In this document: one piece after another, positions 2,848 to 27,280 of the stretch
How positions within the stretch are numbered: position 1 is the first letter of the stretch
Layout: each line of letters begins with the position of its first letter
Virus record (IMG/VR): IMGVR_UViG_3300022752_000073
Coordinates: 1 to 60,129 of that record
Length of the DNA stretch: 60,129 nucleotides
Source of the DNA: a virus
Taxonomy: Duplodnaviria > Caudoviricetes
Reading direction: 5' to 3' (one strand)
Notes under the pieces: generated by a model
Seen by the model: only the letters and a program-made list of their open reading frames with translations
Databases searched by the model: none
What the model was told of the DNA's origin: nothing
Translations under genes and position numbers: made by a program

Positions 2848-3059
2848 CAAACAACACATGTGACAAGTGCGCCCACTACACACCTGACCCCAATGGGAGC
2901 AATGAGGGTAGTTGTTCCCTGATGGGTGACATCAACCAAAGAAGCAACCCGATTGACGGTTGCTCCGGTTGGGATGTGGAGGGCTATTGTGCGGGTGTAT
3001 TTGTTGGTCCCAAGTTTGGGTGTATTCACTGGATAAGGAGAGAGCATGCCAACAACTGA
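2844..3059 (+). CDS. Small Cys-rich hypothetical protein
   Basis: CDKCAHY...FGCIHW; ATGA overlap with upstream gene. Confidence 0.7.
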   Translation: MTNNTCDKCAHYTPDPNGSNEGSCSLMGDINQRSNPIDGCSGWDVEGYCAGVFVGPKFGCIHWIRREHANN

Positions 3060-3273
3060 CTGCCGCATATGCGGTGACGAGATCGACCCCCCAGCGAGGG
3101 CGCAATTAACAACCCTGTGCGTGGACTGCGGTGAGAAAGCCGCACGTCAGGAACGCAAGAGTTGGACGGTAGTGCAAGAGTACGGCAAGGGCGGGTACAT
3201 GTTCATCACACGTGACTCTGCACATCTGACCCTGAAACAAACAAACCAAAAGATATTGAGAGGTGATATATGA
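3046..3273 (+). CDS. C4 zinc-finger protein (DksA/TraR-like finger)
   Basis: CRICGDEI...R...LCVDC; strong RBS. Confidence 0.65.
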   Translation: MPTTDCRICGDEIDPPARAQLTTLCVDCGEKAARQERKSWTVVQEYGKGGYMFITRDSAHLTLKQTNQKILRGDI

Positions 3274-3437
3274 ATCAAGAACGCCAACACGCCATCATGG
3301 CGTGGACATACGTGAGGGAGTGCCTGAAGGCAGACTTCAGCGGCTCTATAAAAAACTTTGAGTTTGTAAAACTTCTGCACGACATGTCACGTGCGTATCC
3401 AAACGAGTTGAAGGAGATATTAGATGAAGCAAGCTGA
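3270..3437 (+). CDS. Hypothetical protein (55 aa, not in ORF track)
   Basis: ATGA overlap and GAGG RBS; fills the gap in the operon. Confidence 0.55.
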   Translation: MNQERQHAIMAWTYVRECLKADFSGSIKNFEFVKLLHDMSRAYPNELKEILDEAS

Positions 3438-3833: not shown

Positions 3834-4736
3834 ATGAGTAACTTTGCAATCGACTTGGGCAACTTCAGCGTGTCCAAACTCTCAAGTTCTGCCCTAATCG
3901 TCAACTTGTCCCTGTCTGTATGGACGGGACGCAAGCTGGACAAGCGCGTATCTGAGGAGGTGGATCAACAGAACAGCACCAAGACCCGTGCTGGTAACTA
4001 CCACAAAAATCTTTTGGCAGGTTCATCCAAGCTGACCGAGATCACCAAGATCGCCAACGCTATACGTTCATGGATGTATGGGGTGACGCAACCTTGGGGC
4101 GACAACGGCGACCGTGTGCTGAACATGGCTCACTTCATGGAGTTCAAGGATCGGCTGACTGATTACGAGCAACAGTTCGGCACTGCTGTCAACAACTTTC
4201 TGAATGATTACGACACGCTAGTGGCGGCTGCCGCTTTCCAACTCGGTGACTTGTTCAACCGTGAGGACTACCCCACACGTGAGCACATTGAATCCAAGTT
4301 CGGCATGCGCTACAGCATGACCCCACTGCCTCAAGCGGGTGACTTCAGGGTGGACATCGGTGAGGAAGGACTCAAAGAGTTGCAGTCGCAGTACGAAGCT
4401 GTGTTGCAACAACGTGTTACAGGAGCAATGACCGAGGCATGGGAGCGACTGCATGACTGCCTGACTCGCATGTCAGAGCGGCTGACTGATGACATCGACA
4501 GCAACGGTGAGAGCAAGCGCAAGATATTCAGGGACTCGCTTGTCGAGAATGCCATCGAGATCTGCGGACTATTGAAGAGTTTCAACATAACCAACGACAC
4601 ACGGTTGGATGAGATGCGCAAGCAACTGGAGGATGCGATGCGCGGTGTGGATGCTGACTCACTACGAGACAGCGACAGTCTGCGTGAGCAGACAAAGCGC
4701 AAGGTGGACAACATCTTGTCTAAGTTCGATATCTAA
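3834..4736 (+). CDS. DUF3150-like helical protein
   Basis: WTGRKLD, T-x-PW-D-G-R and FNREDYP motifs; lies before an AAA/VWA pair. Confidence 0.6.
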   Translation: MSNFAIDLGNFSVSKLSSSALIVNLSLSVWTGRKLDKRVSEEVDQQNSTKTRAGNYHKNLLAGSSKLTEITKIANAIRSWMYGVTQPWGDNGDRVLNMAHFMEFKDRLTDYEQQFGTAVNNFLNDYDTLVAAAAFQLGDLFNREDYPTREHIESKFGMRYSMTPLPQAGDFRVDIGEEGLKELQSQYEAVLQQRVTGAMTEAWERLHDCLTRMSERLTDDIDSNGESKRKIFRDSLVENAIEICGLLKSFNITNDTRLDEMRKQLEDAMRGVDADSLRDSDSLREQTKRKVDNILSKFDI

Positions 4737-4762
4737 TTTTTTAACCCAAAGGAGAAAGTAAC

Positions 4763-5845
4763 ATGTACAACGCAATCACACTCAAACAATCTGCTGACCT
4801 GATCGCCGCCGTGGGTGCTCAACAAACTGTCCTAGTGCAGGGCGAGATGGGCATCGGCAAGTCTGCGATCCTCAAGATGCTCAAGTCTTACTCGCAGTTC
4901 AAGGACGCGTACTTCTGCTACGTGGACATCACCACTAAAGATGTTGGTGACTTCATTGTTCCTAAGATCAAGGACATTGACGGTAATGAGGTCTGCTCGT
5001 TCATACCGAACGAAGAGTTCGGCTTTCACTTCAAGGGCAAGAAGGTTGTCATGATGTTGGACGAGATCGGCAAAGCGCGGGGGGGTGTACTCAATGCCTC
5101 ACTGCGGCTGATGAATGAGCGTTCGCTGGGCACCAATCAACTGAGCGAGGGGTCAGTGGTGTTTGGTACAACAAACTTGGCAGTGGAGGGTATCGGTGAC
5201 AACATTCCGCCGCATGCACGTAACCGCATCACTGTGGTGCGTGTTGCCAAGCCTAATGCCAAGACATGGATCGAGGAGTTCGCCATACCTTACGGTATCA
5301 ACCCTGTGATCATTGGTACGGTGGCTGAGTACCCCGAGATGTTTGCATCGTTCGAGGACTACGAGAAGCCCGAGCAGAATACATACATCAATGACCCCCG
5401 CACTGTGCGCAGTTCGTTTGTGACACCACGTTCTATGGAGAGGGCGGCGTATGTCTACGAGAACACTCGCATACTGGGTGATGATGTGATGTGTCATGCA
5501 TTGGCAGGAACGGTGGGTGAGAAAGCAATGCACAACATCTTGACGATGGACAAGCTCGACTCTCAACTTACCCCATGGGATGAGTTGATCAAGTCCCCCG
5601 ATACCGCGACCGTGCCAACATCTGCCGCCGCCGCATGTATGTTGGTTGCCAAAGCGGTGCATCGTATCGAGAACAGCAACATCGTTGCATGGATGAAGTT
5701 CTTGAACCGCATGCCCAAGGAGGCACAAGGTTTGTTTGCACGTAGCGTCATGTCTGACAAATGCCCCAAGCGTGACGTAGCCGCACGTAACACCGAGTTC
5801 GCTGGGTGGGCGGCTTCTAACAACTTCTTGTTCGCCAAGAAGTAA
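4763..5845 (+). CDS. MoxR-like AAA+ ATPase
   Basis: Walker A GEMGIGKS, Walker B MMLDE, sensor TTN, TPRS motif. Confidence 0.9.
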   Translation: MYNAITLKQSADLIAAVGAQQTVLVQGEMGIGKSAILKMLKSYSQFKDAYFCYVDITTKDVGDFIVPKIKDIDGNEVCSFIPNEEFGFHFKGKKVVMMLDEIGKARGGVLNASLRLMNERSLGTNQLSEGSVVFGTTNLAVEGIGDNIPPHARNRITVVRVAKPNAKTWIEEFAIPYGINPVIIGTVAEYPEMFASFEDYEKPEQNTYINDPRTVRSSFVTPRSMERAAYVYENTRILGDDVMCHALAGTVGEKAMHNILTMDKLDSQLTPWDELIKSPDTATVPTSAAAACMLVAKAVHRIENSNIVAWMKFLNRMPKEAQGLFARSVMSDKCPKRDVAARNTEFAGWAASNNFLFAKK

Positions 5846-5874
5846 TTTCATACCGTATTAAAAAGGAGAGAGAT

Positions 5875-7065
5875 ATGTCATTCTTAACACAGCTCAACAC
5901 GTTGACGCCAACGCAACGTGTACAACGTGCCCATGTGGAGTTGATGGGGCACCCCGAGACGATGACCTATGCCGGTGTGCTGATGGTCGGCAAGTACACA
6001 GTATCTGACGATGTGCCCACTGCACGTACCAACGGCATCGACTGTGAGTACGGTATCGAGTTCATCAACAAGATATCTGATTCTGATTTGCGCGGTCTCA
6101 TCATGCATGAGAATCTGCACAAGGTGTATCAACACATGTTCCTGTGGCAACATCTTTACAAGGAGGATGGGCGCACTGCCAACATGGCGTGTGACTACGT
6201 GATCAACCTTGAGATAGATGCTATCGGCAAGCGTACCAACGGGTTCATCACATTACCCAAGGGTGGACTACTTGACCACAAGTATGCAGGTATGGACTCG
6301 CAGACTGTGTACAACATGTTGCGAGAAGACAATGACGATGACGGGGCCGGGCACGGTGAAGGTGAGGGTAGTGGTCTTGATGACCACGATTGGGAATCAG
6401 GGCAAAACATGTCTCAAGAAGATATTGAGCAGGTTGCCAAAGATATCAATCAAGCCATTCGTCAGGGTCAGCTCATGGCAGGTAAGCTGGGTGGTAATCA
6501 GTCACGTGAGTTGGGTTCGCTCATCGAGCCCAAGGTTGATTGGCGTGAACAACTACGTGAGTTCGTTTCATCCACTGCTGTAGGTAAGGACATTTCTACG
6601 TGGCAACGTGTTAACCGCAGGTGGTTACAACACGACATGTACATGCCGTCAACCATCACTGAGACGGTGGGGCGTATCGTGGTTGCTGTTGACACATCGG
6701 GTTCTATCGGTGAGGCTGAGTTGTCTAAGTTCCTATCCGAGGTTCAAGGCATCTGCCTCAACGCCATGCCCGAGAGAGTTGATCTTTTGTATTGGGACAC
6801 TGAGGTGGCGTCCCATGAAATCTACACACAGGAAAAACTTTCCACGTTGTCGTCATCTACCAAACCGGCGGGCGGTGGTGGCACTGACGTATCGTGTGTT
6901 TCCAAGTATCTTAAAGACAATCAGATCAAGCCCGAGTGTGTGATCGTGCTGACTGATGGCTACATCTATGGTGATTGGGGTACATGGAATGCCCCAGTGC
7001 TGTGGACTATCGTAGGTGGTAACAAAGTCGTACCCCCCATGGGTACAACTATTCACCTTGACTAA
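5875..7065 (+). CDS. Metallopeptidase + VWA domain protein (DUF2201-like)
   Basis: HENLH (HExxH), N-A-D-IN, MIDAS DTSGS, GGGGTD and LTDGY. Confidence 0.9.
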   Translation: MSFLTQLNTLTPTQRVQRAHVELMGHPETMTYAGVLMVGKYTVSDDVPTARTNGIDCEYGIEFINKISDSDLRGLIMHENLHKVYQHMFLWQHLYKEDGRTANMACDYVINLEIDAIGKRTNGFITLPKGGLLDHKYAGMDSQTVYNMLREDNDDDGAGHGEGEGSGLDDHDWESGQNMSQEDIEQVAKDINQAIRQGQLMAGKLGGNQSRELGSLIEPKVDWREQLREFVSSTAVGKDISTWQRVNRRWLQHDMYMPSTITETVGRIVVAVDTSGSIGEAELSKFLSEVQGICLNAMPERVDLLYWDTEVASHEIYTQEKLSTLSSSTKPAGGGGTDVSCVSKYLKDNQIKPECVIVLTDGYIYGDWGTWNAPVLWTIVGGNKVVPPMGTTIHLD

Positions 7066-10999: not shown

Positions 11000-11042
11000 G
11001 TTAAATGACTAATGAAGAAGCAACTTTAAAGGAGAGACAGAG

Positions 11043-11252
11043 ATGCATAGAAATCATATCGAGAGCCATGCCACGAAACCAAACCGTGGCGACGATGGCT
11101 TTGTTGAAAAGGTTAGTAAAAAAAATAAAAAGTCCGAGCAAATCAAATGGAACGAGTGGTGGCCTTTCACACGCGCCACTGGAGACGCACTGCGACAACT
11201 GAACCGTAAACAAACTAAGCCACAACTTGATGTACCGGAGGCATTACTATGA
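11043..11252 (+). CDS. Hypothetical protein (alternative frame 11005..11202 also plausible)
   Basis: RBS; stop overlaps the next start. Confidence 0.4.
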   Translation: MHRNHIESHATKPNRGDDGFVEKVSKKNKKSEQIKWNEWWPFTRATGDALRQLNRKQTKPQLDVPEALL

Positions 11253-15151: not shown

Positions 15152-15179
15152 TTGACACTGTTAATTTTTAAGATATTAT
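15152..15179 (+). promoter_or_regulatory. Sigma70 promoter
   Basis: TTGACA-16bp-TATTAT. Confidence 0.65.
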
Positions 15180-15206
15180 TCAGATACAAATGCAAAGGAG
15201 AGAGAT

Positions 15207-15614
15207 ATGACCGAGACAATATCGGTTGATAAACTCGTCGCCGCTTACATCAAGATGCGCGACAAAAGGGCTGAACTTCTACGTGACTACGAAGAAGCTG
15301 ATGGCTCTGTGAAATCACAGATGGAACTTGTGGAAGCCAAATTATTGGAACTCTGCAAGGAAATCGGTGTTGACCGTCTTGGTAGCACTCACGGTACGGT
15401 AATTCGTTCTGTGAAGACCCGCTATTGGACAAGCGACTGGGAAGCCATGCACAAGTTCATCTTGGAACACAAGATGCCCGAACTGCTTGAACGGCGTATT
15501 AGTCAAACTACCATGAAACAACTGTTAGAGGAGAACCCCGACATCATGCCTACAGGGTTAAACACTGACAGTAAATATGGTGTAACCATAAGGAGAACCC
15601 CAAGTGGATCTTGA
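15207..15614 (+). CDS. Conserved replication-module protein
   Basis: Coiled N-terminus, DW..F, LLERRI; strong RBS. Confidence 0.8.
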   Translation: MTETISVDKLVAAYIKMRDKRAELLRDYEEADGSVKSQMELVEAKLLELCKEIGVDRLGSTHGTVIRSVKTRYWTSDWEAMHKFILEHKMPELLERRISQTTMKQLLEENPDIMPTGLNTDSKYGVTIRRTPSGS

Positions 15615-15795
15615 AGCATCACTGACCGTACAAGAAGTAGCTAAGCTGTTGCGCATGTCACGACAGACTATCTATAACTTGACCCGCGAGGGAACAATCC
15701 CTCATTTCCGCATAGGCAACAAGGTGCGTTACAACCGCGCAGACATTGATGCCCTAATGCAAGCTAAAACCGTAACTACTGGAGAACCCAAATGA
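15604..15795 (+). CDS. Excisionase-like HTH_17 DNA-binding protein
   Basis: LTVQEVAKLLRMSRQTIYNL...IP..RIG..VR. Confidence 0.85.
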   Translation: MDLEASLTVQEVAKLLRMSRQTIYNLTREGTIPHFRIGNKVRYNRADIDALMQAKTVTTGEPK

Positions 15796-16697
15796 GTGAA
15801 ATGACTTTATTTTCTAAAGGTGGTAACACACTACCTGCCCACCTGAAAAACCTTGAACTTGACGCAACTACCAAAGCCCTGATGGGCGGCAGTGGGGGCA
15901 CTGGCGGTAAGCGCATCTCTATTCGAGGCAACGTATTCCGCATGATGGTCGATGGCAAAGAGATCGCCCAAAACGAAGATCGCGCAATGAACATCATTAT
16001 TGCGGCGGCTAACCCTAACGTATCAAGAACTTTTTATGCAGGAACATATCAAGAAGGTCAAGCCATGGCACCCACATGCTGGTCAAATGACGGGATCGCC
16101 CCCGACATCAAAGCTGAGCAACCACAAGCAAGCAAGTGTGCTTCATGCCAACAAAACATCAAAGGCTCAGGTCAAGGTGAATCCCGCGCATGCCGCTTCT
16201 CACAGCGCCTTGCCGTCCTCTTGGAGAACGATATTCGAGGAGACGTTTATCAACTGACCCTCCCTGCGCAATCAATCTTTGGTGCGGCTGAAAATGGGAA
16301 GATGCCCTTGCAGTCATACGCAAAATTCTTGGGAAGCCATGGTTTGCCAGTAACTGCCGTTGTCACCGAGATGCGCTTTGATACTGCAAGCGCAACACCG
16401 CGCCTGACTTTCAAGGCAGTGCGTCCTTTGGAAGCTGAGGAGTTGGAATTGGCTCAAGCAAAAGGTCAATCTTCTGAAGCTAAAGCCGCTATCGCCGCCA
16501 CTTCTGCGCAGATGGATGGTGTACGCACCATGGGTGAATTGACTAAGGAAGAGGATGCCCCTGCGTATGAAAAGATTGCTACCAAAGCAGTCAAGGTAGA
16601 GGCTGAGGCTGTTGAACAGACAGCAGAACCCACCAAGCGCACTAAAAAAGCAGCACCAAAAGATGTTGCCGATATCTTGGATGACTGGGCTGAGTAA
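15792..16697 (+). CDS. Putative ssDNA-binding/annealing protein
   Basis: PTCWSNDG..P, CASC..N..GS....ACR; acidic tail ending DDWAE. Confidence 0.65.
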   Translation: MSEMTLFSKGGNTLPAHLKNLELDATTKALMGGSGGTGGKRISIRGNVFRMMVDGKEIAQNEDRAMNIIIAAANPNVSRTFYAGTYQEGQAMAPTCWSNDGIAPDIKAEQPQASKCASCQQNIKGSGQGESRACRFSQRLAVLLENDIRGDVYQLTLPAQSIFGAAENGKMPLQSYAKFLGSHGLPVTAVVTEMRFDTASATPRLTFKAVRPLEAEELELAQAKGQSSEAKAAIAATSAQMDGVRTMGELTKEEDAPAYEKIATKAVKVEAEAVEQTAEPTKRTKKAAPKDVADILDDWAE

Positions 16698-16739
16698 GTA
16701 AACGGGGGCGGGGAAACCCGCTCCCCAAAGGGGAACCTC

Positions 16740-17102
16740 ATGGACATACTGGAACTTGCGGAAGAACACGAAGAGTTGTTTAGCAAAGAGTTTTTGAAAT
16801 GGTTACCTAACAACTTACATGTCTGGGCAGCGTTTTGCGATCAGGCGTTTAAGATCAGATCAAGCGGTTTCAAACACTACTCTGCTCGTACCATCGTGCA
16901 CTATCTGCGCCACCATTCCGCAGTTACTGAATCTGCTGGGCCTTGGAAGATCAACAACAATTTCAGTCCGTATCTTGCACGACTATTTGACAAACGATTC
17001 CCAAATCTTGCTGGTCTTTGGGAATACAGAGAAACAAAACGTGCCAAGTTAGACCATACCCCACTATTTACTAACAATGAACAACAGAGGTTATTCCCGT
17101 AA
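16740..17102 (+). CDS. Conserved phage hypothetical protein
   Basis: HYSARTI..LR...KINNN..PYLARLF. Confidence 0.75.
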   Translation: MDILELAEEHEELFSKEFLKWLPNNLHVWAAFCDQAFKIRSSGFKHYSARTIVHYLRHHSAVTESAGPWKINNNFSPYLARLFDKRFPNLAGLWEYRETKRAKLDHTPLFTNNEQQRLFP

Positions 17103-17325
17103 ATTTGTAGATGCGAACAATAAAGCAGACCCATTTCATGTTGGTGTTCAACTTGGTCGCATTTGCATTGAACGGGACATTCCAGTACAGGATGTTGCAG
17201 AACATCTTGGTGTATCACGGCAAGCCATATACATGTGGTTCTTGGGAAAAGCAATACCCCACCCGAGAAAACGCAAAGTATTATGGGAACTGCTTAGTCG
17301 TTTAACGACCAACGCCGCAACTTAA
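17077..17325 (+). CDS. XRE/Cro-like HTH regulator
   Basis: VQDVAEHLGVSRQAIYMWFLG...P. Confidence 0.8.
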   Translation: MNNRGYSRKFVDANNKADPFHVGVQLGRICIERDIPVQDVAEHLGVSRQAIYMWFLGKAIPHPRKRKVLWELLSRLTTNAAT

Positions 17326-17388
17326 TCCCCCCGCCCAAGGTTTATCGCCAGTAGACCTGAAGGCATTTTTGTCTGTAAAGAGCGAACA

Positions 17389-20232
17389 ATGACAATACGG
17401 AATACCTTTCTCAACGCTGTACTTGCCTCCGAAGGTTTGTACTGTGTGGTTGGACTGAAGAAGGGTGCGCCGAGGCAAACTTTTGTAGAAACGATTGATG
17501 AGATTGATGGAGTCGTAGATGGACTTATTTCTCAGGGATATGACGCATACTTTGGATGCGCCAAATATCTTTTGGAGACTGAAGGTCGAACAGCAAAAAA
17601 CGCAAAGTGGTTCAAGGCTTTTTGGCTTGATCTAGATTGTGGAGAAAACAAACCATACGAAACACAAGCATTCGCACTGAATGCGCTCAGACTATTTGTT
17701 AAAGCAACAGGACTACCCCGACCCACTATCGTTAATTCAGGACGTGGCATACACGTTTACTGGACACTGACGGAGACCATCGGATACAACGATTGGAAAC
17801 CAACAGCCGAAGCACTTAAAAAATTCTGTGCTTCATACAATCTGTCCGCTGACCCTGCGGTCACAGCAGATGCGGCTCGAATTCTACGTGTGCCTGACAC
17901 ACTGAGCTTTAAAGATAACCCACCAAAACAAGTAGCTGTATTGGTTGAGTCGCAGCCCGTAGAGTTCTCACGCTTCAAAACGTTGATAGGTATGGAAGAA
18001 GAGGATGACGAACCTAAAGGTTTGTTTGGCTCTGACGCTCCACCACGCCGCCCAATAGATGCAACCACCCGCGCTTTGATGGGCAACAGCGTATCCCGTT
18101 TTGCAACGATTATGCGCAAAAGCGCCGAGGGCGAGGGATGTGCGCAACTGCTACGTATCTATAAAGAACAAGAGACCGTTGAAGAACCGTTGTGGAGAGC
18201 AGGGTTGTCTATTGCAGTCAACTGCGAAGACGGTGAGAAAGCAATCCATAAGATTAGCAATCAACATCCTGAATACGATCCTCAAGAAACGTTCAACAAG
18301 GCGCATGCTTTATTAGAAAAGCCCTACAAGTGCAATACGTTCTCAAGCATTAACTCCGCGCCATGCCAAGACTGTCCGAATAAAGGCAAGATTACTTCAC
18401 CGATTCAGATTGGCTCACGCATTGCAGAGGCTAAGGCAGAAGACAACATCGTTGTTATGCACAACGCTGTGCTGGAAGAAGAAGTCACGGTTGAAATCCC
18501 CGAGTACCCATACCCATATTTTCGTGGAAAAAACGGCGGGGTCTACAAACGAGGTTGGGGCAAAGACGAGAAAGGTGAAGATGAGAAAGATGAGTTGATC
18601 TACGAGTACGACTTCTACGTCGTCAAGCGATTGAATGATCCGGACACGGGAGAATCTTTGTGGATGAGACTACATATGCCCAAAGATGGAATCCGCGAAT
18701 TCTCCGCACCGCTATCCAGCGTTTTATCAAAAGACAAGTTGCGTGAAGTCTTGGCGTATCAGGGCGTAACCGCATACAACAAAAGATTGGATTTACTTAT
18801 GGGATACATCACTAAGTGGGTGCAAGAACTTCAGCACCTGTCAGAAGCAGAAAAAGCACGTCAGCAGTTTGGTTGGCATGAGGAAGACACCAAGTTCATC
18901 GTGGGCAACCGTGAGATCACAGCATCGGGCGTGAACTACAGCCCATCATCAAACGCCACTGCGGAGACCGCTAGTTTCTATACCAAGAAAGGCTCAGTTG
19001 CTGAATGGAAAAAGGTTGCCAACATCTACGCCACTGCCGGAAATGAAGTCCGTGCGTTCACACTTTTTGCAGGGTTTGGCTCAGCGTTGTACAAGTTCAC
19101 CAAACTTAACGGCTCTATCATTCACCTGACCAACAACGGCTCCGGTGTAGGTAAGACAACTATTCAGTTGTTGGTCAACAGCATTTGGGGTAGGCCAGTT
19201 GAACCCTTGATGAATCAAGAAGACAAGTACTTGGCACGTATGCACCGTATCTCAGTGCTGGGCAATATACCCCCTACTATTGATGAGTTGACCAACATGG
19301 CTGACGAGGAAGTCAGTGCGATGGCTTACGCTATCACGCACGGGCGCGGTCGTAACCGTATGCAGTCACAGTCAAATGCGGAACGTAGCAATTCATTGCG
19401 CTGGTATTTGATTGCGATTACATCAGGCAACAAAAGTTTGTACGATCAGTTGTACAACCTCAAAGATTTTCCGGAGGGCGAACTGATGCGGGTACTGGAG
19501 TTTGCGGTTGCCAAAAACGACAACTTGAGCAAAGCTGAATCTGACGCGATGTTCAACCCCATGTACGAGAACTACGGTGTAGCTGGCGAGATCTTCATTC
19601 GATATGTGATTGCCAATCTACCGGAAGTTCAACGTCTGCTGAATGCAATTCAGCGCAAGTTTGACAAAGCCGCAGGGTTTACCCAACGTGAACGGTTTTG
19701 GTCAGCAACAGCGGCATGTGCTCTTACATCCGGCATCATCGCCAAGAAGTTAGGCTTACATGATATTGACGTATCGGCAGTCTATAAATGGGCGGTTGAA
19801 ACTTTAAGCCGTATGCGGGTTGAAGTGCGCTCTGATGGCATGACTCCTTTGAGCCGTATCGGTATGTTCTTGAACGAAAAGAACAACAACATGTTGATCA
19901 TCAACAGCACAGTGGATAAGCGTTCAGGATTACACGAAGCGCCAATACGTGAACCCCGTGGGGAGCTGATGACGCGCTTTGAACCTGACAAGAAGCTGCT
20001 CTTTATATCTACCAAAGCCCTGCGGGAGTGGTGTAGTGAGAACCAAATTTCTTACAAAATGTTGTGTGAAGACTTGCAGAAGAACCGAATTACTACGGGT
20101 GTGATTAAAAAGAGTCTGTCCAAAGGCTCGGACATTACGACCCCCTCAGTGTTTTCACTGGTGATTGACTGCTCTGTTGCTACTGAACTTGATCCGGAAG
20201 TAGAGATTACTACCGATGACAATAACGGCTGA
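17389..20232 (+). CDS. Primase-helicase (AEP/RepB-like primase + DUF927 + P-loop)
   Basis: WLDLD, SGRGIHVYW, ARILRVP, Cys cluster, Walker A GSGVGKTT, IDE and G.GR.R. Confidence 0.88.
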   Translation: MTIRNTFLNAVLASEGLYCVVGLKKGAPRQTFVETIDEIDGVVDGLISQGYDAYFGCAKYLLETEGRTAKNAKWFKAFWLDLDCGENKPYETQAFALNALRLFVKATGLPRPTIVNSGRGIHVYWTLTETIGYNDWKPTAEALKKFCASYNLSADPAVTADAARILRVPDTLSFKDNPPKQVAVLVESQPVEFSRFKTLIGMEEEDDEPKGLFGSDAPPRRPIDATTRALMGNSVSRFATIMRKSAEGEGCAQLLRIYKEQETVEEPLWRAGLSIAVNCEDGEKAIHKISNQHPEYDPQETFNKAHALLEKPYKCNTFSSINSAPCQDCPNKGKITSPIQIGSRIAEAKAEDNIVVMHNAVLEEEVTVEIPEYPYPYFRGKNGGVYKRGWGKDEKGEDEKDELIYEYDFYVVKRLNDPDTGESLWMRLHMPKDGIREFSAPLSSVLSKDKLREVLAYQGVTAYNKRLDLLMGYITKWVQELQHLSEAEKARQQFGWHEEDTKFIVGNREITASGVNYSPSSNATAETASFYTKKGSVAEWKKVANIYATAGNEVRAFTLFAGFGSALYKFTKLNGSIIHLTNNGSGVGKTTIQLLVNSIWGRPVEPLMNQEDKYLARMHRISVLGNIPPTIDELTNMADEEVSAMAYAITHGRGRNRMQSQSNAERSNSLRWYLIAITSGNKSLYDQLYNLKDFPEGELMRVLEFAVAKNDNLSKAESDAMFNPMYENYGVAGEIFIRYVIANLPEVQRLLNAIQRKFDKAAGFTQRERFWSATAACALTSGIIAKKLGLHDIDVSAVYKWAVETLSRMRVEVRSDGMTPLSRIGMFLNEKNNNMLIINSTVDKRSGLHEAPIREPRGELMTRFEPDKKLLFISTKALREWCSENQISYKMLCEDLQKNRITTGVIKKSLSKGSDITTPSVFSLVIDCSVATELDPEVEITTDDNNG

Positions 20233-20419
20233 TACTGTACCAGTTGCTATAGAATGGCACAAATTTGTAGTGGGTAGTTCCTTCTATATACCGTGCTTGG
20301 ATCGTCAAGGTATTTCTAATCAAGTTGTTGCCTACGCTAAAGATCGAGGCATGAAAATTAAATTCCGTTTTGTTTTGGAAAGAGGCACCCAAGGAGTGAG
20401 ATTCTGGCGGATCACTTAA
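20216..20419 (+). CDS. Small putative DNA-binding protein
   Basis: VGSSFYIPC...GVRFWRI. Confidence 0.7.
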   Translation: MTITADTVPVAIEWHKFVVGSSFYIPCLDRQGISNQVVAYAKDRGMKIKFRFVLERGTQGVRFWRIT

Positions 20420-20439
20420 CATTGTGCTAGAGTTCGCCC

Positions 20440-20511
20440 TAGCAACTTTGTTACTCTCTCCTTTGGGTTGCTATCTCCTTGAACCCCGACTTCGGTCGGG
20501 GTCTTTTTTTT
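20440..20511 (+). ncRNA. Candidate anti-RBS small RNA ending in a terminator
   Basis: Hairpin TAGCAACTT/GGGTTGCTA with a CU-rich loop complementary to early RBSs; extended -10 TGCTAGAGT upstream. Confidence 0.65.
20483..20511 (+). terminator. Rho-independent terminator at the convergence of the two arms
   Basis: ACCCCGAC-TTCG-GTCGGGGT followed by CTTTTTTTT. Confidence 0.9.
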
Positions 20512-23500
20512 AATCACCGTATGCTTCAGCGGCAGCTTGCTTCAAGTAAGGTGCCAGTTTGCGGTCAAGCTGTACACCATGGTGCATCTCATTCGTAATA
20601 CGATCTCTCGCTTTTACTGACTGAGTGATTGTGTTTTCACTGATCTTCAGTTCAGGATACTTAGCACCAAGCTCAAACAACTTCTCACGTGCCTCCATCA
20701 TGCCGTCGATGTCACCTTCACGCATCGCCGCATAGTATTTCTTCAGTGCGTTCTTCTCGATAGACTTGATCGCTTTACCTTTCTCGGTCATGTACGCATT
20801 TTCTTCGTACTGTTTCATCAGGTCAGCAGGAGCAAAGCCAAGCACTTGCATCGCGGCGTTGTAGCCGTTCACATCCCCAACCGTATCACCACGTAGAGTG
20901 TTAGCGCCTTCAACTGCATAACGACCACCCTTCAAGATGTTGCGCAACCCCACGGGTAGCATGGCTTCGATGCCACGTTCCATCTGACCTTCGGCAATCA
21001 GATCTTTTGCACGGAACAAGCTGTCAACAATTGAGTATGGAGCACCCAGTGCGCTTTCAAGAATTTGAGCTAAAGCACTAGCATCAGCCTTACTACCTTT
21101 TTGCTCACGCCACAACAAGTCAGTCCAGCCCACACGATCCGCTATGCTCAGATTGGTGAAGTAGTTGACTGGGCCTTTGTAAAAGAAATCCCCAAGGAAT
21201 TCACGCATGACAGTATCAAAGTCATCGTCGTCTTTATCTTGGAACATGTTGTATGCCAACTCAGCAATCCAATACAAGGGCAAACCCTTAGCGCCAGCAA
21301 AGAGCGCAGACATGCCGTATATGCCAACAAGTTGTCTACGTGCCGCTTTGATTGCTTCAAGCTGTTCACCCGTTGCACCTTTGACGGGAAGTGAGCGCAT
21401 CATGGTGTCAAACAACATGTAGTACATGCTGAATGCGAAACGCTTAAACACCATCAAAACTTTTCCTATGTCACTCTGTCCAAGGCTTGGCCCGGCGAGC
21501 GTACTACCTGCACCGTGTGCGTACTCTACAAGAGAAAGGGCTTTTTCAATCGCTTTGGTTTGCTTTTCAGCTTCGCTCATCTTGGAGTTTTTGAGCTTAG
21601 TCATTTCCAAATCGTAAGCGGCAACGGCGGTGATTTCACGGTTCATGCGCTCAGCATGATGGAACATGAAAGAGCCTACCAAAGTTGTGTAACGCACTAG
21701 CTTGTTTGTACTGCCGTAGCCTGATGAATCGTTATTTTCAGAACGTAGCGCATCCCGTGCAGTAGAAGTTTGCAAAAGCCCACGAGCTTTCATAGTCTCA
21801 ATAAGTTCTTTGTACTGAGGAGCTTTTCCGCTGTTGACCAAGTTCTCAATAGAAGTCATGGCTTTCTGATCGCTAGACTCACCTGTCAGCTCGGCAACTT
21901 TACGAGAGAACCCGCTACCCATATAGAGCTTACGGGCGTTGTTCAGTGCTACACCCGCATTTTTAAACCCATACTCACCACCCAGTTGCGGAAAGACAAC
22001 CAACGGAGTTTGCAATACGTTAATTGCCGCAGAAGATACGTTACCTGCGAGGTTGTAGTAGAACGCGCCGGAGCTTGCGTACTGTGACCAGCTTGACAGC
22101 GTAGGTTTCATCGCAAAGTTGCGACGACCTTCAAATTCCTCTATGAGCTCACTACCATAAGTATTGACATCCCCCCGTGAGGAGTTAACTGTCTTTTCCA
22201 TCTCCCCCACAATACGTTGCAGTTCAGGGCCATACTGCATGCGTGCCAACTGACGTGCGGTGTTACTGCTCACACGGTCGAACACATAAGCGGCGTTGTC
22301 TATGTAACCACCGATACCGGTACGTTTTTGACGGCTCTTCAAAATGCTGGCTTCAGGCATAGCCTTGACAACAAGTTGTATCAAGTCGTTAATAGCGTCC
22401 TCTCCTGCACCGTTGTCCTTCATGATTTTCATGATGTCGGCAAGCATGGTGCCTGACGGTACGGTCTTGGTAGTTAGTTGGTCAGCACGAGAGTAGACAT
22501 CAATGTTTTTAGCACCATTGGCTTCCAGTTGTTTACGTGCAAAGTCACGTTCAGCCTCGGAGTCAAAAGTCTGTTTATTAGTTTCGCCATTGAGGTCGTA
22601 CTGCAACCAGAACTGGCCTTCGCGGAACAAAGGCGCATAGTGGTCAATACGTACATCAGCGAGTTCTCGCAAAATCTTTTGGTATGCAGATGCGGCTTTA
22701 TCCTTGCCATCCACCGTAGCCTCGATGTTGCGCTCCAGCGACTTCAAGAACTCCGCATCAAGAGCTTTGTAGGTGGCAAATAGATCGTGGTACAACTTCT
22801 GGCCAGTTGGTGTAAGTTTCTTAAACCGCGCATTGAGCTGTCTCCACTCGGCTTCTTTCTCAGGACTGCCTTTGTATTTGCTTAAGTCTGCTTCAGGGTT
22901 TACATCTACACGGGTAGAGTCATTCACCAAAGTAGACCATGTTTGATATTCCTCAGATTGACGGAACTTGGTCAAACGGTCGTGCAGCGGGTGCATAGCC
23001 TCAAGAAGTTTTTCTTGGTAACCCGCCATTTCTTCTACGGTATTTGCAAATCGTTTCGCACTTTCACCTAAATATCTGCTACCAACATCGCCCAAAGCAG
23101 ACAAATTCAACGACTTGTACATCAATTGGCGACCAGTCGTGCCAATTTTTTCTGCGGCTTTCCAAAACCCAACAGCACGTTCAGTGTTCATGACGGGCTG
23201 CTTGCGTATTATTTTGTTCATCTTTGTGAACATCTCTTGCACCACGTTGGGGTTGTGTAAGGATTGCGCGTACAAAGTTTCACCCGTGCGTTCGGCGGGA
23301 GGTGGGCTGATGATGTCATTGAGCATGCGGTCAATCGCATCTAATGCAGTCTCATGTTTGGGAGGCAAACGAAGCAACTGACGCACGGCGTTGACTAAAC
23401 GCTCCCAACCAGTCAGCTTCTCACCAGTAGGCTTGAACTCTTTCAAGCGGTTGCGGAACGCATCATTGCTCCACGCCTCGGCAGCGAACTCTTGTATATC

Positions 23501-26500
23501 TTGCGCACCATAAGTTCCTTCAGTGCCTTTCTTCATTTGATTGAAGAGGGTTGTGACCTGACGGGTTACGGGGTGTGACGGGTTGTCCAAAGTGTGGGAC
23601 ATGGTTGCATGTGAAGACTCATGCAGAATTTCGTACTCGGTAGCACCGTCACGCAAATAGATTGTGTTGGTTGCAGGGTCGTACCTAGAAACATCAGCGC
23701 CATACACAAGGTTCACATTGCCAACCAACTTGGACAACTGCTGTGCAAAAAGTTCTGCTGTTTTAGACGAGCCACTGTCCGCCAGTGCTTGTAACGCACC
23801 TACCAAGTTATTGTTCTCTAACTGATTTAAGGCTACCGGGTGCGCTTGCGTATGTAATGCGGCGAGGTCTGCATCGGCAAACAAGTCCGTGGTGTCAGTG
23901 TCAGCTATGTCATCCAGATCGCCCAGATCGGATTCCAACTCACGTGCAAGACGTTGTAGGTCTTTCTTACGTTTGCCTGCCAAAGTCTTCGTACCTTTGG
24001 CTTCTGCAATTTCTTCCAGTGTGGGTGCGTATTCGCCCTCTGCCTCGGCAGCGGCAGCTTCTTCAGCAACCTGCACCTTAGTAGCTTTACGCACACTTGT
24101 TTGTGCTTCTTGGCGGCGTCGAACAGCGTCAGACCTTTGCTTTTCCTTTTGGTACTGGGCAACCTTCTGATCCATAAATGCAACTGCTTCGGGGGACAAG
24201 TTGGCACGTGCCCATGCTTCGGCGTTCTTAGCGTGAATACCGCCTTGACCTTTAAAAAATGCGGCTTCTTCTTTGGTGCCAAACATTGGCTCGTTCAAAG
24301 ACTTCATCACCGAATTACGATACGCCTCGGGTTGATACACCAAGTCGTTTGCAATTGAATCAAGCGCAAGCTCAGGGACTACCTTGCCAAAGTAGGCTTT
24401 TGCATCTTTAGCTTGTTGGTCGAGCTTGACCCCACGCTGGCCTAACTTTTGATTTATAACAGGCAGTTCTGCGGACAGATTAGGACGGCTCGATGTGCCA
24501 CGGGTGGGGGTTACTGCTTTGGCTGCTGTCGTTTGTCTTTGCGTTTTTGCTTGCTTGGTTTGTGTTTCTTTGATCCCGTTTTTAGCAAGCCGTTCCATTA
24601 CCCGAGAACGGATTTCCGCATCGGTACCCACGAGCATTTCTGCGTCAATAGGCGCACCCTTTGAAAACACCATACCAGCTTCATTGGTAGCCGCATATTT
24701 CACATACCAATTACCGCTGTACGGGTTTATAGGCTCCAGCGTGAACCCACCAATTTCTTTTGGTAAAATCCGTTCCAGTATGGCCTGTTGTTCAGCAATT
24801 TCAGGGCGCACTTCAGTTTTCGCGGTAAGCGCCGGAGCTTTTTTGGTTTGCTTGGTTTTAGAGGTCGTAGTGCCACTTGGAGTTCCTTGTTGACGTTTAG
24901 CTAATTCTGCCTGTACGAGCGCATACTCGGGATCGTTGAGGTAGATATTGTTGAGTTCAACATTTAGCTGCTCATCAGACAGTTTGCTAACTGCTTCCGG
25001 TGTAACCGCTCCGCGAGTCAACTTAAATGGACTGGGCTGTTCGGTTTGTTTTTGTCCTTGCGTTTCTGTTTGGACGGTTTCAAGGGTCGTAGTGCCACTT
25101 GGGGTTCCTTTGTCAAATTGAGTATCAATAGAGCCCATAGACGGGGCCGCACGAACTACAGCGTCACGTAATCTTGCAATTGTTTCTTCAGGTTTTGCTG
25201 ACTTCTTAACTTCAAGACCAAGATCTCTAGCAATTGCGTTAATTTTGCTTGGATTTAATGGAATGCCACCTTTATCTATTGCGTCTAATAAATCTTTGGC
25301 TGACTGTACTTCTGGGGGCAATGTCAGTGCACTGGGCTGTTGTCCTTCTCCTCCAGTAGCACTTCCAGCATCCTGCTCAGTAAGAACATCTCCATCTCGT
25401 TGAGTTGTTTTAGAGGTTGTGGCAGTTCCAGCGGCAGTGGACTCGCTAACCACGCCAGTGCTTCCTCCACTTGGGGTGGTGTCAGATCTTGTAACATCAG
25501 GGGCTCCAAATGCAAAGTTTCGTGTTTGCTCTTGCTGTTTCTGTTTGGTAGGGGAAAGCGTTTCAGCTTGCATTTCAGCACGTGCAGCTTTGACTTCTTG
25601 CGGATCAAAGGTACTGATCAAATCATCGTAGGCAGCTTCATCAATCGTGCCCTTGAAGCTGGGGTTCTCTAAAGTCTGGATGAGCTTGCGGCGACCATCA
25701 ACCGTATCAAGATCAACGCCAAGCAAACTCCGGCCAAGTTCGGATCGGTGAGACACCTTAAGATTTTTTAAGGTGTCAACTGTAACTAAATCTCCGAGAG
25801 TGTTTGTAGCTACAGGGCCAAACGCAAAGTCACGTGTGGCTTGTTGCTGAGCAGCACGCTGTTGCTCCAACTCAGGTTTGAACATATCACCAGTAGTAGG
25901 CGGCACGATACTAAACGGGGCACCACGTTCACCATACCGCGCTTCGATCTTTTTGGCATCTTCGGCAGCTTGTGCGGCTTGAGCAGCGGCTACTTCCTCT
26001 TGCGCTTTGATAACTTGTTCTTGCAGGTCAGCGTAAGCAGGGGAGTCAGGACGCATCTGATCCATCCGTGCTTGGAGAGCTTTGAGGTTTTCTGCACGCT
26101 GGGTGTAGTCGGGTAGCCCTGCGAATGTTTCGCCAAGTTCAGCTTCACGTTGTTTACGTGCGTTTTCAAACGCGATGTCGTACTCAGCTTTTTTCTCTGG
26201 TGTCAGAGTGCCCGCTTTTCTTTCAGCTTCATACTGAGCCTTGAGGGCCGCTTCGGCTTCTTTGGTATCTTTAAACTCTTTACGGGCAGTCAAGCCTTGG
26301 CTTGTACCGCTGACAGTGCCAAACGCACCACCACCGATTGCACCTTTGACAAACGACTCTTTGAAACGCTGGATGTTCTCTGGGCCAAACATGTCTTTAG
26401 TGCTACCTGCAACTTGTTCTGCGGCGGCATTGATAGACTCTTGTGCGGCTTCAGTCAAACCTTCAGCCCCTGCGGTTTTAGCGGCTTCTTTGCCAATATA

Positions 26501-27280
26501 CTTCCACACTTTAGGTGCAGCACCGGAATCTTTAGCCATCTTCTCGATGACTTTTAGTTTGCCGTAACCACCCAACTCACCCAGCAGTTTGCCGGGAACA
26601 ATAGATTCCAATACAGAAGATAGACCACCGGCGAGTGCAGAAATCCCCGGCTCCATCTTGTCAGTTTCTTGATAGATGCTTTCAAATACTTCAGGTGCGT
26701 TTTGTGCAAACGAGCCAAGGTACACACCACCATACATTGCACGTTTACCAGCAGCTTCAGCGGTTTTTTCAACGGCAGCTAGACCTGCGCGGGAAACTGG
26801 GCCAGCAGCTTGAGCGGCGCGAAGGGCGCTTTGTCCGGCAAGCCTACTACCCACGGCTCCAGCACCCACACCGGGGATAAGTGCAGTCAGCGCAGTGGGG
26901 CCAAGTTCACCCAAAGTTTCTGCACCGTATTGCAGGGCTTCGTAAGGGCTTTCAATTTCAGTGTACGACTTGAACTGTGTGGGGTACTTGGCTTCTAACG
27001 CTTGACGTGAAGCAGCGGCTTCATCCATTTGGCGTTGGGCATACTCATCAAAGCCAAGCGCAGAACCAATCATAGCGGGGAGCGTGTCCCCTAAAGCGAT
27101 ACCTGTTTCCCCTAAGCCACGCATGAAACCGCGCTTGAGGAGGGTGCCAATCCCTACTTCAGGTTTTGGCAGTTTAAAATCGTACTTTTGTTGAAGCGCA
27201 GCAAGTTGCGCTTGAAACTGCTCAGGTGTTAGATCATCCCGAAAATTGACGGGGCCAAGTTTGGGCAGATTGAGGATCAT
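20510..27280 (-). CDS. Large internal virion/ejection (polyvalent) protein with zincin metallopeptidase motif
   Basis: 2256 aa, last gene of late arm; hydrophobic G/A-rich N-region; LHESSH...QEFAAEAWSN. Confidence 0.8.
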   Translation of the reverse strand: MILNLPKLGPVNFRDDLTPEQFQAQLAALQQKYDFKLPKPEVGIGTLLKRGFMRGLGETGIALGDTLPAMIGSALGFDEYAQRQMDEAAASRQALEAKYPTQFKSYTEIESPYEALQYGAETLGELGPTALTALIPGVGAGAVGSRLAGQSALRAAQAAGPVSRAGLAAVEKTAEAAGKRAMYGGVYLGSFAQNAPEVFESIYQETDKMEPGISALAGGLSSVLESIVPGKLLGELGGYGKLKVIEKMAKDSGAAPKVWKYIGKEAAKTAGAEGLTEAAQESINAAAEQVAGSTKDMFGPENIQRFKESFVKGAIGGGAFGTVSGTSQGLTARKEFKDTKEAEAALKAQYEAERKAGTLTPEKKAEYDIAFENARKQREAELGETFAGLPDYTQRAENLKALQARMDQMRPDSPAYADLQEQVIKAQEEVAAAQAAQAAEDAKKIEARYGERGAPFSIVPPTTGDMFKPELEQQRAAQQQATRDFAFGPVATNTLGDLVTVDTLKNLKVSHRSELGRSLLGVDLDTVDGRRKLIQTLENPSFKGTIDEAAYDDLISTFDPQEVKAARAEMQAETLSPTKQKQQEQTRNFAFGAPDVTRSDTTPSGGSTGVVSESTAAGTATTSKTTQRDGDVLTEQDAGSATGGEGQQPSALTLPPEVQSAKDLLDAIDKGGIPLNPSKINAIARDLGLEVKKSAKPEETIARLRDAVVRAAPSMGSIDTQFDKGTPSGTTTLETVQTETQGQKQTEQPSPFKLTRGAVTPEAVSKLSDEQLNVELNNIYLNDPEYALVQAELAKRQQGTPSGTTTSKTKQTKKAPALTAKTEVRPEIAEQQAILERILPKEIGGFTLEPINPYSGNWYVKYAATNEAGMVFSKGAPIDAEMLVGTDAEIRSRVMERLAKNGIKETQTKQAKTQRQTTAAKAVTPTRGTSSRPNLSAELPVINQKLGQRGVKLDQQAKDAKAYFGKVVPELALDSIANDLVYQPEAYRNSVMKSLNEPMFGTKEEAAFFKGQGGIHAKNAEAWARANLSPEAVAFMDQKVAQYQKEKQRSDAVRRRQEAQTSVRKATKVQVAEEAAAAEAEGEYAPTLEEIAEAKGTKTLAGKRKKDLQRLARELESDLGDLDDIADTDTTDLFADADLAALHTQAHPVALNQLENNNLVGALQALADSGSSKTAELFAQQLSKLVGNVNLVYGADVSRYDPATNTIYLRDGATEYEILHESSHATMSHTLDNPSHPVTRQVTTLFNQMKKGTEGTYGAQDIQEFAAEAWSNDAFRNRLKEFKPTGEKLTGWERLVNAVRQLLRLPPKHETALDAIDRMLNDIISPPPAERTGETLYAQSLHNPNVVQEMFTKMNKIIRKQPVMNTERAVGFWKAAEKIGTTGRQLMYKSLNLSALGDVGSRYLGESAKRFANTVEEMAGYQEKLLEAMHPLHDRLTKFRQSEEYQTWSTLVNDSTRVDVNPEADLSKYKGSPEKEAEWRQLNARFKKLTPTGQKLYHDLFATYKALDAEFLKSLERNIEATVDGKDKAASAYQKILRELADVRIDHYAPLFREGQFWLQYDLNGETNKQTFDSEAERDFARKQLEANGAKNIDVYSRADQLTTKTVPSGTMLADIMKIMKDNGAGEDAINDLIQLVVKAMPEASILKSRQKRTGIGGYIDNAAYVFDRVSSNTARQLARMQYGPELQRIVGEMEKTVNSSRGDVNTYGSELIEEFEGRRNFAMKPTLSSWSQYASSGAFYYNLAGNVSSAAINVLQTPLVVFPQLGGEYGFKNAGVALNNARKLYMGSGFSRKVAELTGESSDQKAMTSIENLVNSGKAPQYKELIETMKARGLLQTSTARDALRSENNDSSGYGSTNKLVRYTTLVGSFMFHHAERMNREITAVAAYDLEMTKLKNSKMSEAEKQTKAIEKALSLVEYAHGAGSTLAGPSLGQSDIGKVLMVFKRFAFSMYYMLFDTMMRSLPVKGATGEQLEAIKAARRQLVGIYGMSALFAGAKGLPLYWIAELAYNMFQDKDDDDFDTVMREFLGDFFYKGPVNYFTNLSIADRVGWTDLLWREQKGSKADASALAQILESALGAPYSIVDSLFRAKDLIAEGQMERGIEAMLPVGLRNILKGGRYAVEGANTLRGDTVGDVNGYNAAMQVLGFAPADLMKQYEENAYMTEKGKAIKSIEKNALKKYYAAMREGDIDGMMEAREKLFELGAKYPELKISENTITQSVKARDRITNEMHHGVQLDRKLAPYLKQAAAEAYGD

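Follow-up and report, generated by a model that had tools for sequence, protein, structure and literature searches.

Bacterial small RNAs (sRNAs) of the DapZ and MicL type lie at the 3' ends of mRNAs, are started from an internal promoter, end at the terminator of the parent mRNA, and act in trans on unrelated mRNAs. In phages P1 and P7, c4 precedes its one target (icd/ant) and is excised from the transcript. This antisense RNA is described as pairing around the ribosome-binding site (RBS) of a phage mRNA by means of complementary stretches in loops, within the same transcription unit as its target (PMC12197685). The cuckoo/CcsR (alpha-r14) RNAs of Alphaproteobacteria are described as two to four adjacent hairpins carrying the anti-Shine-Dalgarno (anti-SD) loop motif CCUCCUCCC (PMC4615179), and the function of the toxic small RNA (tsRNA) in Burkholderia is given as unknown (PMC4603805). 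RNA sequencing (RNA-seq) of the virulent phage PAK_P3 is reported to have yielded two abundant intergenic transcripts, sRNA1 and sRNA2, with proposed translational roles, and a conserved stretch of sRNA2 to match tRNA T-psi-C loops (PMC4933390). LUZ7 sRNA1-3 are likewise reported as abundant small intergenic transcripts of a lytic phage, seen by RNA-seq (PMC9163698). The phage sRNAs found in literature searches are aimed at host genes, CRISPR or lysogeny control or are without known role, and none of those is aimed at the SD class of the phage's own early genes; supplementary tables may list more. The element analysed here lies in a 90-bp gap between convergent genes of an uncultured freshwater phage (IMG/VR record IMGVR_UViG_3300022752_000073, 60,129 bp, estimated 95% complete; this whole stretch is called the window below). 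With a probability of about 0.55, it is the gene of a phage anti-SD sRNA of ~70 nucleotides (nt) that would pair with the phage's own early RBSs, foremost that of a 135-amino-acid (aa) gene, and lower their translation.

The + arm of the window (281-20419) carries DUF3150-like, AAA-type ATPase, VWA/metallopeptidase-like, DNA polymerase A, SNF2 helicase and DUF927 primase-helicase genes and is the replication arm. The - arm, from 20510, carries the large terminase subunit, portal, major head and virion proteins and is the structural arm. The gap is the junction of the two arms, bounded by the stop of a 67-aa + strand open reading frame (ORF; 20216-20419) and that of a 2256-aa - strand ORF (20510-27280). 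Within 20420-20512 stand an extended -10 box, a hairpin whose loop is rich in C and U, another UCUCC and a terminator ending in U8 (Table 1). What the preliminary description states about the sequence was confirmed throughout. The hairpin, second anti-SD and UUCG terminator of the preliminary description were recovered by folding 20441-20511, at -23.0 kcal/mol (z = -4.2; 0/200 shuffles as stable). In 8 lineages neither seed was paired in the minimum-energy or the centroid fold, and the terminator carries a long U tail, both features of trans-acting base-pairing sRNAs of the Hfq type. Once 20 bases of upstream sequence were added, the most stable structure became a competing hairpin, GCUAG-N8-CUAGC. 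The terminator is a GC-rich stem-loop directly followed by its U run (U5-U8 across lineages), and the T run is present on the + strand only. The extended -10 that had been noticed just upstream is also there (TGTGCTAGAGT, 20423-20433); TGTGC-TAGAGT, the box of a predicted extended -10 sigma-70 promoter (a type that can do without a -35 box), is conserved in relatives at exactly the consensus positions. The bare pattern is not rare in the window (2 found, 2.4 expected), and the weight of the box comes from its conservation, not from rarity. It begins 4 nt past the stop at 20419, with no terminator-like site between that stop and the element, so operon read-through must carry the element as a 3' untranslated region (UTR). 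This is the layout of a 3'-end sRNA with an internal promoter, here read from conservation, just past the upstream gene and with a terminator common to both. Promoter and terminator alike appear to be of ordinary host type.

Searched against Rfam 15, the whole window gave no family at its gathering threshold. The best scores in the gap, all on the + strand, were RF02278 at 21.9 bits (threshold 50) and RF00519 at 19.3 bits (threshold 41). The element resembles RF02278 (the Betaproteobacteria toxic small RNA) and RF00519 (mmgR) in being short and in having a GC-rich terminator behind a U(G/A)UCUCC or CU-rich motif; the RF02278 alignment, however, covers only UAUCUCC and the terminator and skips a 23-nt hairpin. 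The cuckoo/CcsR RNAs are also small RNAs of hairpins with a pyrimidine anti-SD in the loop, but they are bacterial, whereas the phage element has a single non-terminator hairpin (loop UGUUACUCUCUCCUUU, containing CUCUCUCCUUU and no CCUCCUCCC) and a linker seed. With c4 it has in common that it is phage-encoded, displays the complement of an RBS in a loop and belongs to the transcription unit of its target. Unlike c4 it stands at the 3' end, has a promoter box of its own, carries generic anti-SD seeds and has many predicted targets; the C4 model (RF01695) was not among the 19 matches listed at an expect value (E) of at most 10 for 20380-20560. The promoter at the very end of the upstream gene, the terminator common with the operon and the proposed seed pairing in trans recall DapZ and MicL, but the element is of a phage, and the target that it fits best opens its own parent operon. 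PAK_P3 and LUZ7 sRNAs are transcripts that have been seen and have no defined anti-SD logic, whereas the element has a clear anti-SD logic and is known from its sequence. In its manner of working the element is like the bacterial pyrimidine-loop anti-SD sRNAs and P1/P7 c4, but is a member of none.

Relatives were collected by a primase-helicase search of IMG/VR, which gave 74 loci at 54-99% protein identity, 42 of them with sequence downstream. The loop was to be sought in relatives, and the same element was found in 36 close relatives with sequence there; four had a diverged form (L045, L049-L051) and in two (L044, L054) it was unrecognisable. Averaged over the 36 loci, the element is 75% identical to that of the window; the adjacent 67-aa gene reaches 72%, the late ORF 56% at its 3' end, and third codon positions 52.6%. 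The non-coding gap is under selection, since the identity of the element matches that of the neighbouring gene and exceeds that of third codon positions. In an alignment of 28 distinct sequences, the -10 positions T,G,T,G,-,T,A,-,A,G,T were each invariant or at least 90% conserved, with variation on the N positions, and the diverged L045 and L049 forms (54-57% primase identity) retained the box as TGTGATACATT and TGTGGTAGATT. Changes on both sides were found in 5 of the 8 terminator pairs, and 95.5% of cells were paired, a value reached in 0/500 shuffles (slid controls, 28-50%). In the 5' stem 90.4% of cells were paired, around a nearly invariant core GCAAC/GUUGC. L045 and L049 have a different hairpin at the position of the 5' stem, then an open CU-rich stretch, then the terminator; the CU-rich linker is the one seed position common to the window form and these distant forms. 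A covariance model built on the element (R1) found exactly one copy per genome in 8/8 genomes or contigs holding the region (87.8 bits in the window) and no paralogous copies elsewhere in the genomes, where there were only seven weak matches (E 0.13-0.39). The conserved gap, the -10 pattern that is kept and the compensated terminator pairs support a + strand sRNA gene. Some functional + strand RNA is thus likely to be encoded in the gap, which is probably an RNA gene of ~70 nt with its own extended -10 promoter and a terminator common with operon 15207-20419.

The operon that ends at the element opens with the 135-aa gene. In a ranking over orthologues its RBS was the most consistent site, matched in 6/6 genomes with a mean of 9.5 nt. 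Its leader is only ~20 nt, as a near-consensus promoter directly precedes it; in relatives the corresponding position has TATTAT, TAAAAT or TATAAT. Across 23 distinct loci, cognate pairs of RNA and RBS matched over a mean of 9.65 nt at -21.9 kcal/mol, and non-cognate pairs over 8.62 nt at -19.0 kcal/mol; the cognate values were reached in 0/5000 permutations (the 23 loci are related, and the test ignores relatedness). Matched differences between RNA and RBS were CCUGU with ACAGG in L013 and L043, UCCUCUCCUUC with GAAGGAGAGGA in L019, a 3' GC in L015, and GUCAC with GUGAC in L011, where the duplex is GUCACUCUC with GAGAGUGAC. In L045, where GGAA stands as the SD, the RNA carries UUCC; UUUCCUUUGU pairs there with ACAAAGGAAA over 10 nt, and the 14.7-kb locus has no second match of that length. 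For L049/50 the pair is CACUCUCCU with AGGAGAGUG. The RBS of the 135-aa gene and the RNA appear to vary in step from lineage to lineage, down to relatives with a primase identity of 54-57%. The protein matches phrog_13900 (labelled "minor head protein"), reaches no Pfam cut-off and is uncharacterised.

Complementarity to early RBSs as a class was counted in the window and in five complete relatives (G001-G005), with genes from an arm-aware heuristic caller. RBS windows (-25 to +3) were counted when at least 8 contiguous Watson-Crick nt were found against the cognate seed region. Early against late counts were 11/38 and 0/47 in the window, 13/47 and 0/44 in G001, 4/33 and 2/51 in G002, 8/39 and 1/50 in G003, 4/47 and 1/60 in G004, and 4/44 and 0/27 in G005. 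Pooled over the six genomes, this is 44/248 early and 4/279 late (Fisher 1.9e-11). Seed shuffles that kept composition gave ~1 match; they reached the observed early count in 0/300 trials in the window, G001 and G003, and in 4-14/300 in the other three. Generic SD strength, measured against ACCUCCUUA (a generic 16S tail, which may not be that of the host), did not differ between arms in 5/6 genomes. Because pairing with the generic tail is equal between arms, the excess lies in the flanks of the SD, typically in an AGAGAG spacer outside 16S-tail pairing. Cofolding agreed in direction. The top 14 targets in the window by cofold free-energy difference (ddG) were all in the early arm (median -8.8 against -4.0), and 20/38 early but 3/47 late starts had a ddG of -8 kcal/mol or below. 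A hand-made gene list went the same way (median -16.2 for 34 early and -12.5 for 39 late genes, p = 0.0066). AGGAGAGA has five copies in the 60 kb, namely the element and the + strand RBSs of 3046, 5875, 11043 and 15207; one of 100 shuffles reached five. RBS matches listed in the preliminary description at 2500, 3046, 3834, 5875 and 15207 were found again, as were those of the second motif at 3424 and 8238. Its proposal of an sRNA silencing early genes is supported by comparison in two parts, the + strand RNA unit and the selectivity for early-arm RBSs, but not in its emphasis on the AAA gene and its neighbours. Selective complementarity of the predicted RNA to early-arm RBSs holds.

Table 1. 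Coordinates of the predicted RNA, its signals and its candidate targets in the window.
Feature	Positions	Strand	Remarks
Predicted sRNA, ~70 nt	20441-20510	+	start inferred 7 nt (+/-2) past the -10 box; 3' end within the U run
Extended -10 box TGTGCTAGAGT	20423-20433	+	hexamer TAGAGT 20428-20433; -35 weak, 3/6
Palindrome GCTAG-N8-CTAGC	20426-20443	either	overlaps -10 box and RNA start; sole copy in window
5' hairpin	20441-20472	+	stem 20441-20448/20465-20472; 16-nt loop 20449-20464, UGUUACUCUCUCCUUU
Anti-SD seed 1 CUCUCUCCUUUG, in loop	20454-20465	+	exact complement of 15193-15204
Open linker AUCUCCUUGA, 10 nt	20473-20482	+	fold from predicted start
Anti-SD seed 2 AUCUCCUU, single-stranded linker	20473-20480	+	complements AAGGAGAU at RBSs of 8238 and 3424
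Intrinsic terminator	20483-20511	+ only	8-bp stem (6 GC pairs), UUCG loop, U8; stem-loop 20483-20502, U8 20504-20511
RBS CAAAGGAGAGAG of 135-aa gene 15207-15614	15193-15204	+	12-nt match; cofold ddG -21.3
Sigma-70 type promoter TTGACA-16-TATTAT of operon 15207-20419	15152-15179	+	11/12 consensus matches
AAA-gene RBS, 20/21 complementary to 20449-20469	4743-4763	+	ddG -23.4; specific to window genome
Leader of 69-aa ORF 11043-11252 (AGCAACUUUAAAGGAGAGA, 11018-11042)	11018-11039	+	top cofold target, ddG -23.7; 10 contiguous nt
RBS AAAGGAGAGAG of VWA/metallopeptidase-like gene 5875-7065	5862-5872	+	match 11 nt in window, 10 in G003, 9 in G001, 5 in G004
RBS AAGGAGAGAG of 75-aa DksA/TraR-like zinc-finger gene 3046-3273 (PHROG family)	3035-3044	+	match 10 nt in window, 10 in G001, 9 in G004

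Apart from the 135-aa gene, seed 1 is complementary over 11 nt to 5862-5872, over 10 nt to 3035-3044 and over 10 nt to 11028-11037. The RBSs of the VWA-like (5875) and DksA-like (3046) genes are recurring, weaker candidate targets. The leader of the 69-aa ORF, a predicted ORF for which no family was found, is predicted to pair with the loop of the RNA and the 3' side of its stem.

Several points weigh against an anti-SD sRNA aimed at the phage's own early genes. The most striking match is not conserved. The preliminary description had built on the reverse complement of 20449-20469, which does match 4743-4763 at the AAA-gene RBS in 20 of 21 nt; the ATG of a 360-aa AAA-type ORF begins at 4763, the match is the only other hit in the window at up to 3 mismatches, and 0/100 shuffles gave two matches. 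Co-evolution of the AAA gene with the RNA had to be abandoned. Among 11 relatives with both loci on one contig, only a 99% twin keeps the match; in the other 10 the AAA-gene RBS is weak or different while the element stays unchanged. The stress laid on the DUF3150/AAA/VWA triad fell with it; the RBS that appears to change along with the RNA belongs to the 135-aa gene at 15207. In the proposed check of covariation between loop and target RBS, the AAA gene failed and the 135-aa gene gave a mixed picture, with matched differences in several lineages. At the 135-aa gene, a cognate advantage was absent in 7 of the 23 pairs (L014, L020, L022, L023, L027, L035 and L041), and independent events number perhaps 5-7, relatedness being ignored by the permutation. 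Non-cognate pairs already match over 8.6 nt, because seeds and targets are of low complexity (CU against GA). G002, G004 and G005 show a weak arm bias, with energy tests at p = 0.076, 0.21 and 0.36; G003 gave p = 0.058, and values below 0.05 were obtained only in the window (0.0002) and G001 (0.039). G001 moreover has an arm difference in generic SD strength (p = 0.005), and all gene starts rest on the heuristic caller. In the 5' stem just 2 of the 8 pairs changed on both sides, in one sequence each; the core hardly varies, so RNA pairing is not demonstrated there and the stem is neutral on this point. The RNA is predicted from comparison of phage sequences. Contigs of three metatranscriptome runs gave no match on 20150-20750 at 82% likeness, and no RNA record was listed for 17400-23400, which is neutral as to expression. 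In a search for the host, the element pattern gave 0 matches in the genome contigs collection, and the primase had no relative in the same collection. No match to named relatives was found by blastn of 19800-21200 against the phage collection; the nearest named matches of the DNA polymerase, Rhizobium phage RHph_TM3_14A and Pseudomonas phage KPP25, are ~35% identical and too distant for comparison of the gap.

The alternative that survives best, in itself unlikely, keeps a real sRNA and turns it on the host. The RNA would mimic the 16S tail and titrate strong SD sites of host mRNAs, its main targets, with the fit to phage RBSs as a by-product. The seeds are inherently SD complements, and the best sub-threshold Rfam likenesses are the bacterial anti-SD sRNAs given above. 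Non-cognate seeds also match about as many early RBSs as cognate ones, because the core is common to all. Yet pairing reaches past the SD into the AGAGAG spacer, which a generic 16S tail leaves unpaired, and the arm bias is present although generic SD strength is equal in five of the six genomes. Host targets also leave aside the lineage-specific matches at the 135-aa gene, including the change of the SD core in L045.

Distinctly improbable is the view that there is no independent RNA and that the element is the 3' UTR and terminator of the operon. Here the anti-SD would act in cis, by 5'-3' pairing of a 5.3-kb mRNA, or as a 3' stabiliser, and TGTGCTAGAGT would be half of a hairpin or a protein site. 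The operon transcripts do carry the element, the -35 is poor (3/6), and the upstream GCUAG/CUAGC hairpin is the minimum-energy fold when the RNA is longer, with 95.8% pairing across relatives. But no pair of that hairpin has changed on both sides. The pattern T-G-T-G-n-T-A-n-A-n-T survives in L045 and L049, which have no such hairpin, and it is kept in L017, L020 and L025, where the hairpin loses pairs. The same box also serves elsewhere with a perfect -35.

A function on the - strand is very improbable. AAGGAGA and AAAGGAGAGAG would then be a relic or decoy RBS, the leader of a mini-ORF, or GGA sites of the CsrA/RsmA type in the 3' UTR of the late 2256-aa gene. GGA does occur in the hairpin loop and in the open stretch, a TTG lies 8 nt past the second SD, and late transcripts probably enter the gap, since the terminator has no U run on the - strand. 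CsrA sites have short loops, however, and the loop here is 16-21 nt. A conserved - strand peptide was rejected, the ATG at 20422 becoming TTG, CTG or nothing in relatives. The mini-ORF past the SD-like run was rejected as well; it has 9, 5 or 3 aa or a different 9 aa, and keeps neither frame nor length (18 of the distinct - strand rows). The notion of a minus-strand RBS remnant, which would have spoken against the sRNA, is likewise very improbable. No - strand promoter or terminator was found for the gap, and the - strand leaves the + strand -10 pattern and U run unexplained. Equally improbable is a DNA-level element (an operator, a signal for replication or packaging, or a boundary where modules recombine) whose RBS likeness is chance or a fossil duplication: it would suit the inverted repeats GCTAG/CTAGC and GCAAC/GTTGC, both invariant and nearly free of compensatory change, and the site at the junction of the genome arms, but the CU-rich stretches between the repeats are also conserved and appear to change in step with an RBS 5 kb away, the terminator covariation is of the RNA type, and an inverted match of 9-12 nt would be too short for upkeep by recombination.

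Further observations were made in and around these features. The 2256-aa protein (20510-27280, - strand), product of the last gene of the structural arm, has LPD39 (large polyvalent protein domain) as its sole Pfam match; the T run of the + strand terminator includes the stop codon of its gene, beyond which there is no terminator for the - strand. The palindrome at 20426-20443 may be an operator or a competing hairpin in read-through RNA, and may be bound by a small helix-turn-helix (HTH) protein of the operon, from 15604-15795 (HTH_17) or 17077-17325 (HTH_3/Cro-like). The triad of the early arm (3834-7065, + strand) consists of DUF3150-like, AAA-type ATPase and DUF2201 (VWA-like and metallopeptidase-like) genes. 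A AGGAGAGA run lies antisense within the first primase codons and is conserved in one clade (L022, L023, L024, L028, L029, L031, L059, L061, L062 and L076), at ~6028 (-) in the locus and at 1223 in L028, 2703 in L023 and 4363 in L076; it is probably coding sequence read backwards.

The other copy of the -10 pattern in the window belongs to a promoter at 1572-1600 with a perfect TTGACA at 17-bp spacing (TTGACA-17 bp-TGTGGTACAGT, + strand), whose homologue is conserved in G003. It is followed by ~600 bp (1607-2233) without a + strand ORF of at least 60 aa, which may be a long leader or hold small ORFs or a further non-coding RNA. Repeats near this promoter are TTCCCACTGTGGGAAATCAA, itself palindromic and present twice (1717-1741 and 2464-2488), and, at 2138-2161 and 2173-2201, a tandem AACAGACGGGAT in two copies with GGATAACAGA(C/T) repeats and the 14-nt inverted repeat CTGTTAGCCTAGTG/CAGTAGGCTAACAG. 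The repeats within 1717-2488 look like operator or origin (iteron) sites.

The sRNA aimed at the phage's own early RBSs draws on conservation, the promoter pattern, terminator covariation, arm-selective complementarity and the lineage-specific matches at the 135-aa gene. Transcription, its start point, repression and timing are the parts that we infer from these. Host RNA polymerase would start near 20441 at the extended -10, past the last gene of the replication operon, and stop at the operon's intrinsic terminator. The seeds resemble the 3' tail of 16S rRNA, extended to fit AAGGAGAGAG-type RBSs, which in these phages mark early and replication genes but are absent from structural ones. Loop and linker seeds would pair over the SD of AAGGAGAGAG-type leaders, so that 30S binding is blocked and translation, and perhaps mRNA stability too, is lowered. 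The outcome would be delayed negative feedback on the replication module, with a broader damping of other early genes; such feedback is the simplest circuit, because the RNA gene ends the operon whose first cistron fits best. Late transcripts that run past the one-way terminator would be antisense to the RNA. A wider scheme is doubtful, in which there are two RBS classes and one RNA, building up as the operon is expressed, reads the AAGGAGAGAG tag of early genes, closes the operon's first gene and the other tagged ones to translation, and so serves as a timer that hands ribosomes to late mRNAs, with late antisense able to reset the RNA.

Accounts of temporal control in phages rely almost wholly on transcription, through sigma factors, phage RNA polymerases and antiterminators. 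If the proposed sRNA acts as described, it would add a translational off-switch to phage temporal control, exerted through a private RBS class on early genes. It would also be among the very few trans-acting sRNAs with an assignable target set outside the model temperate phages.

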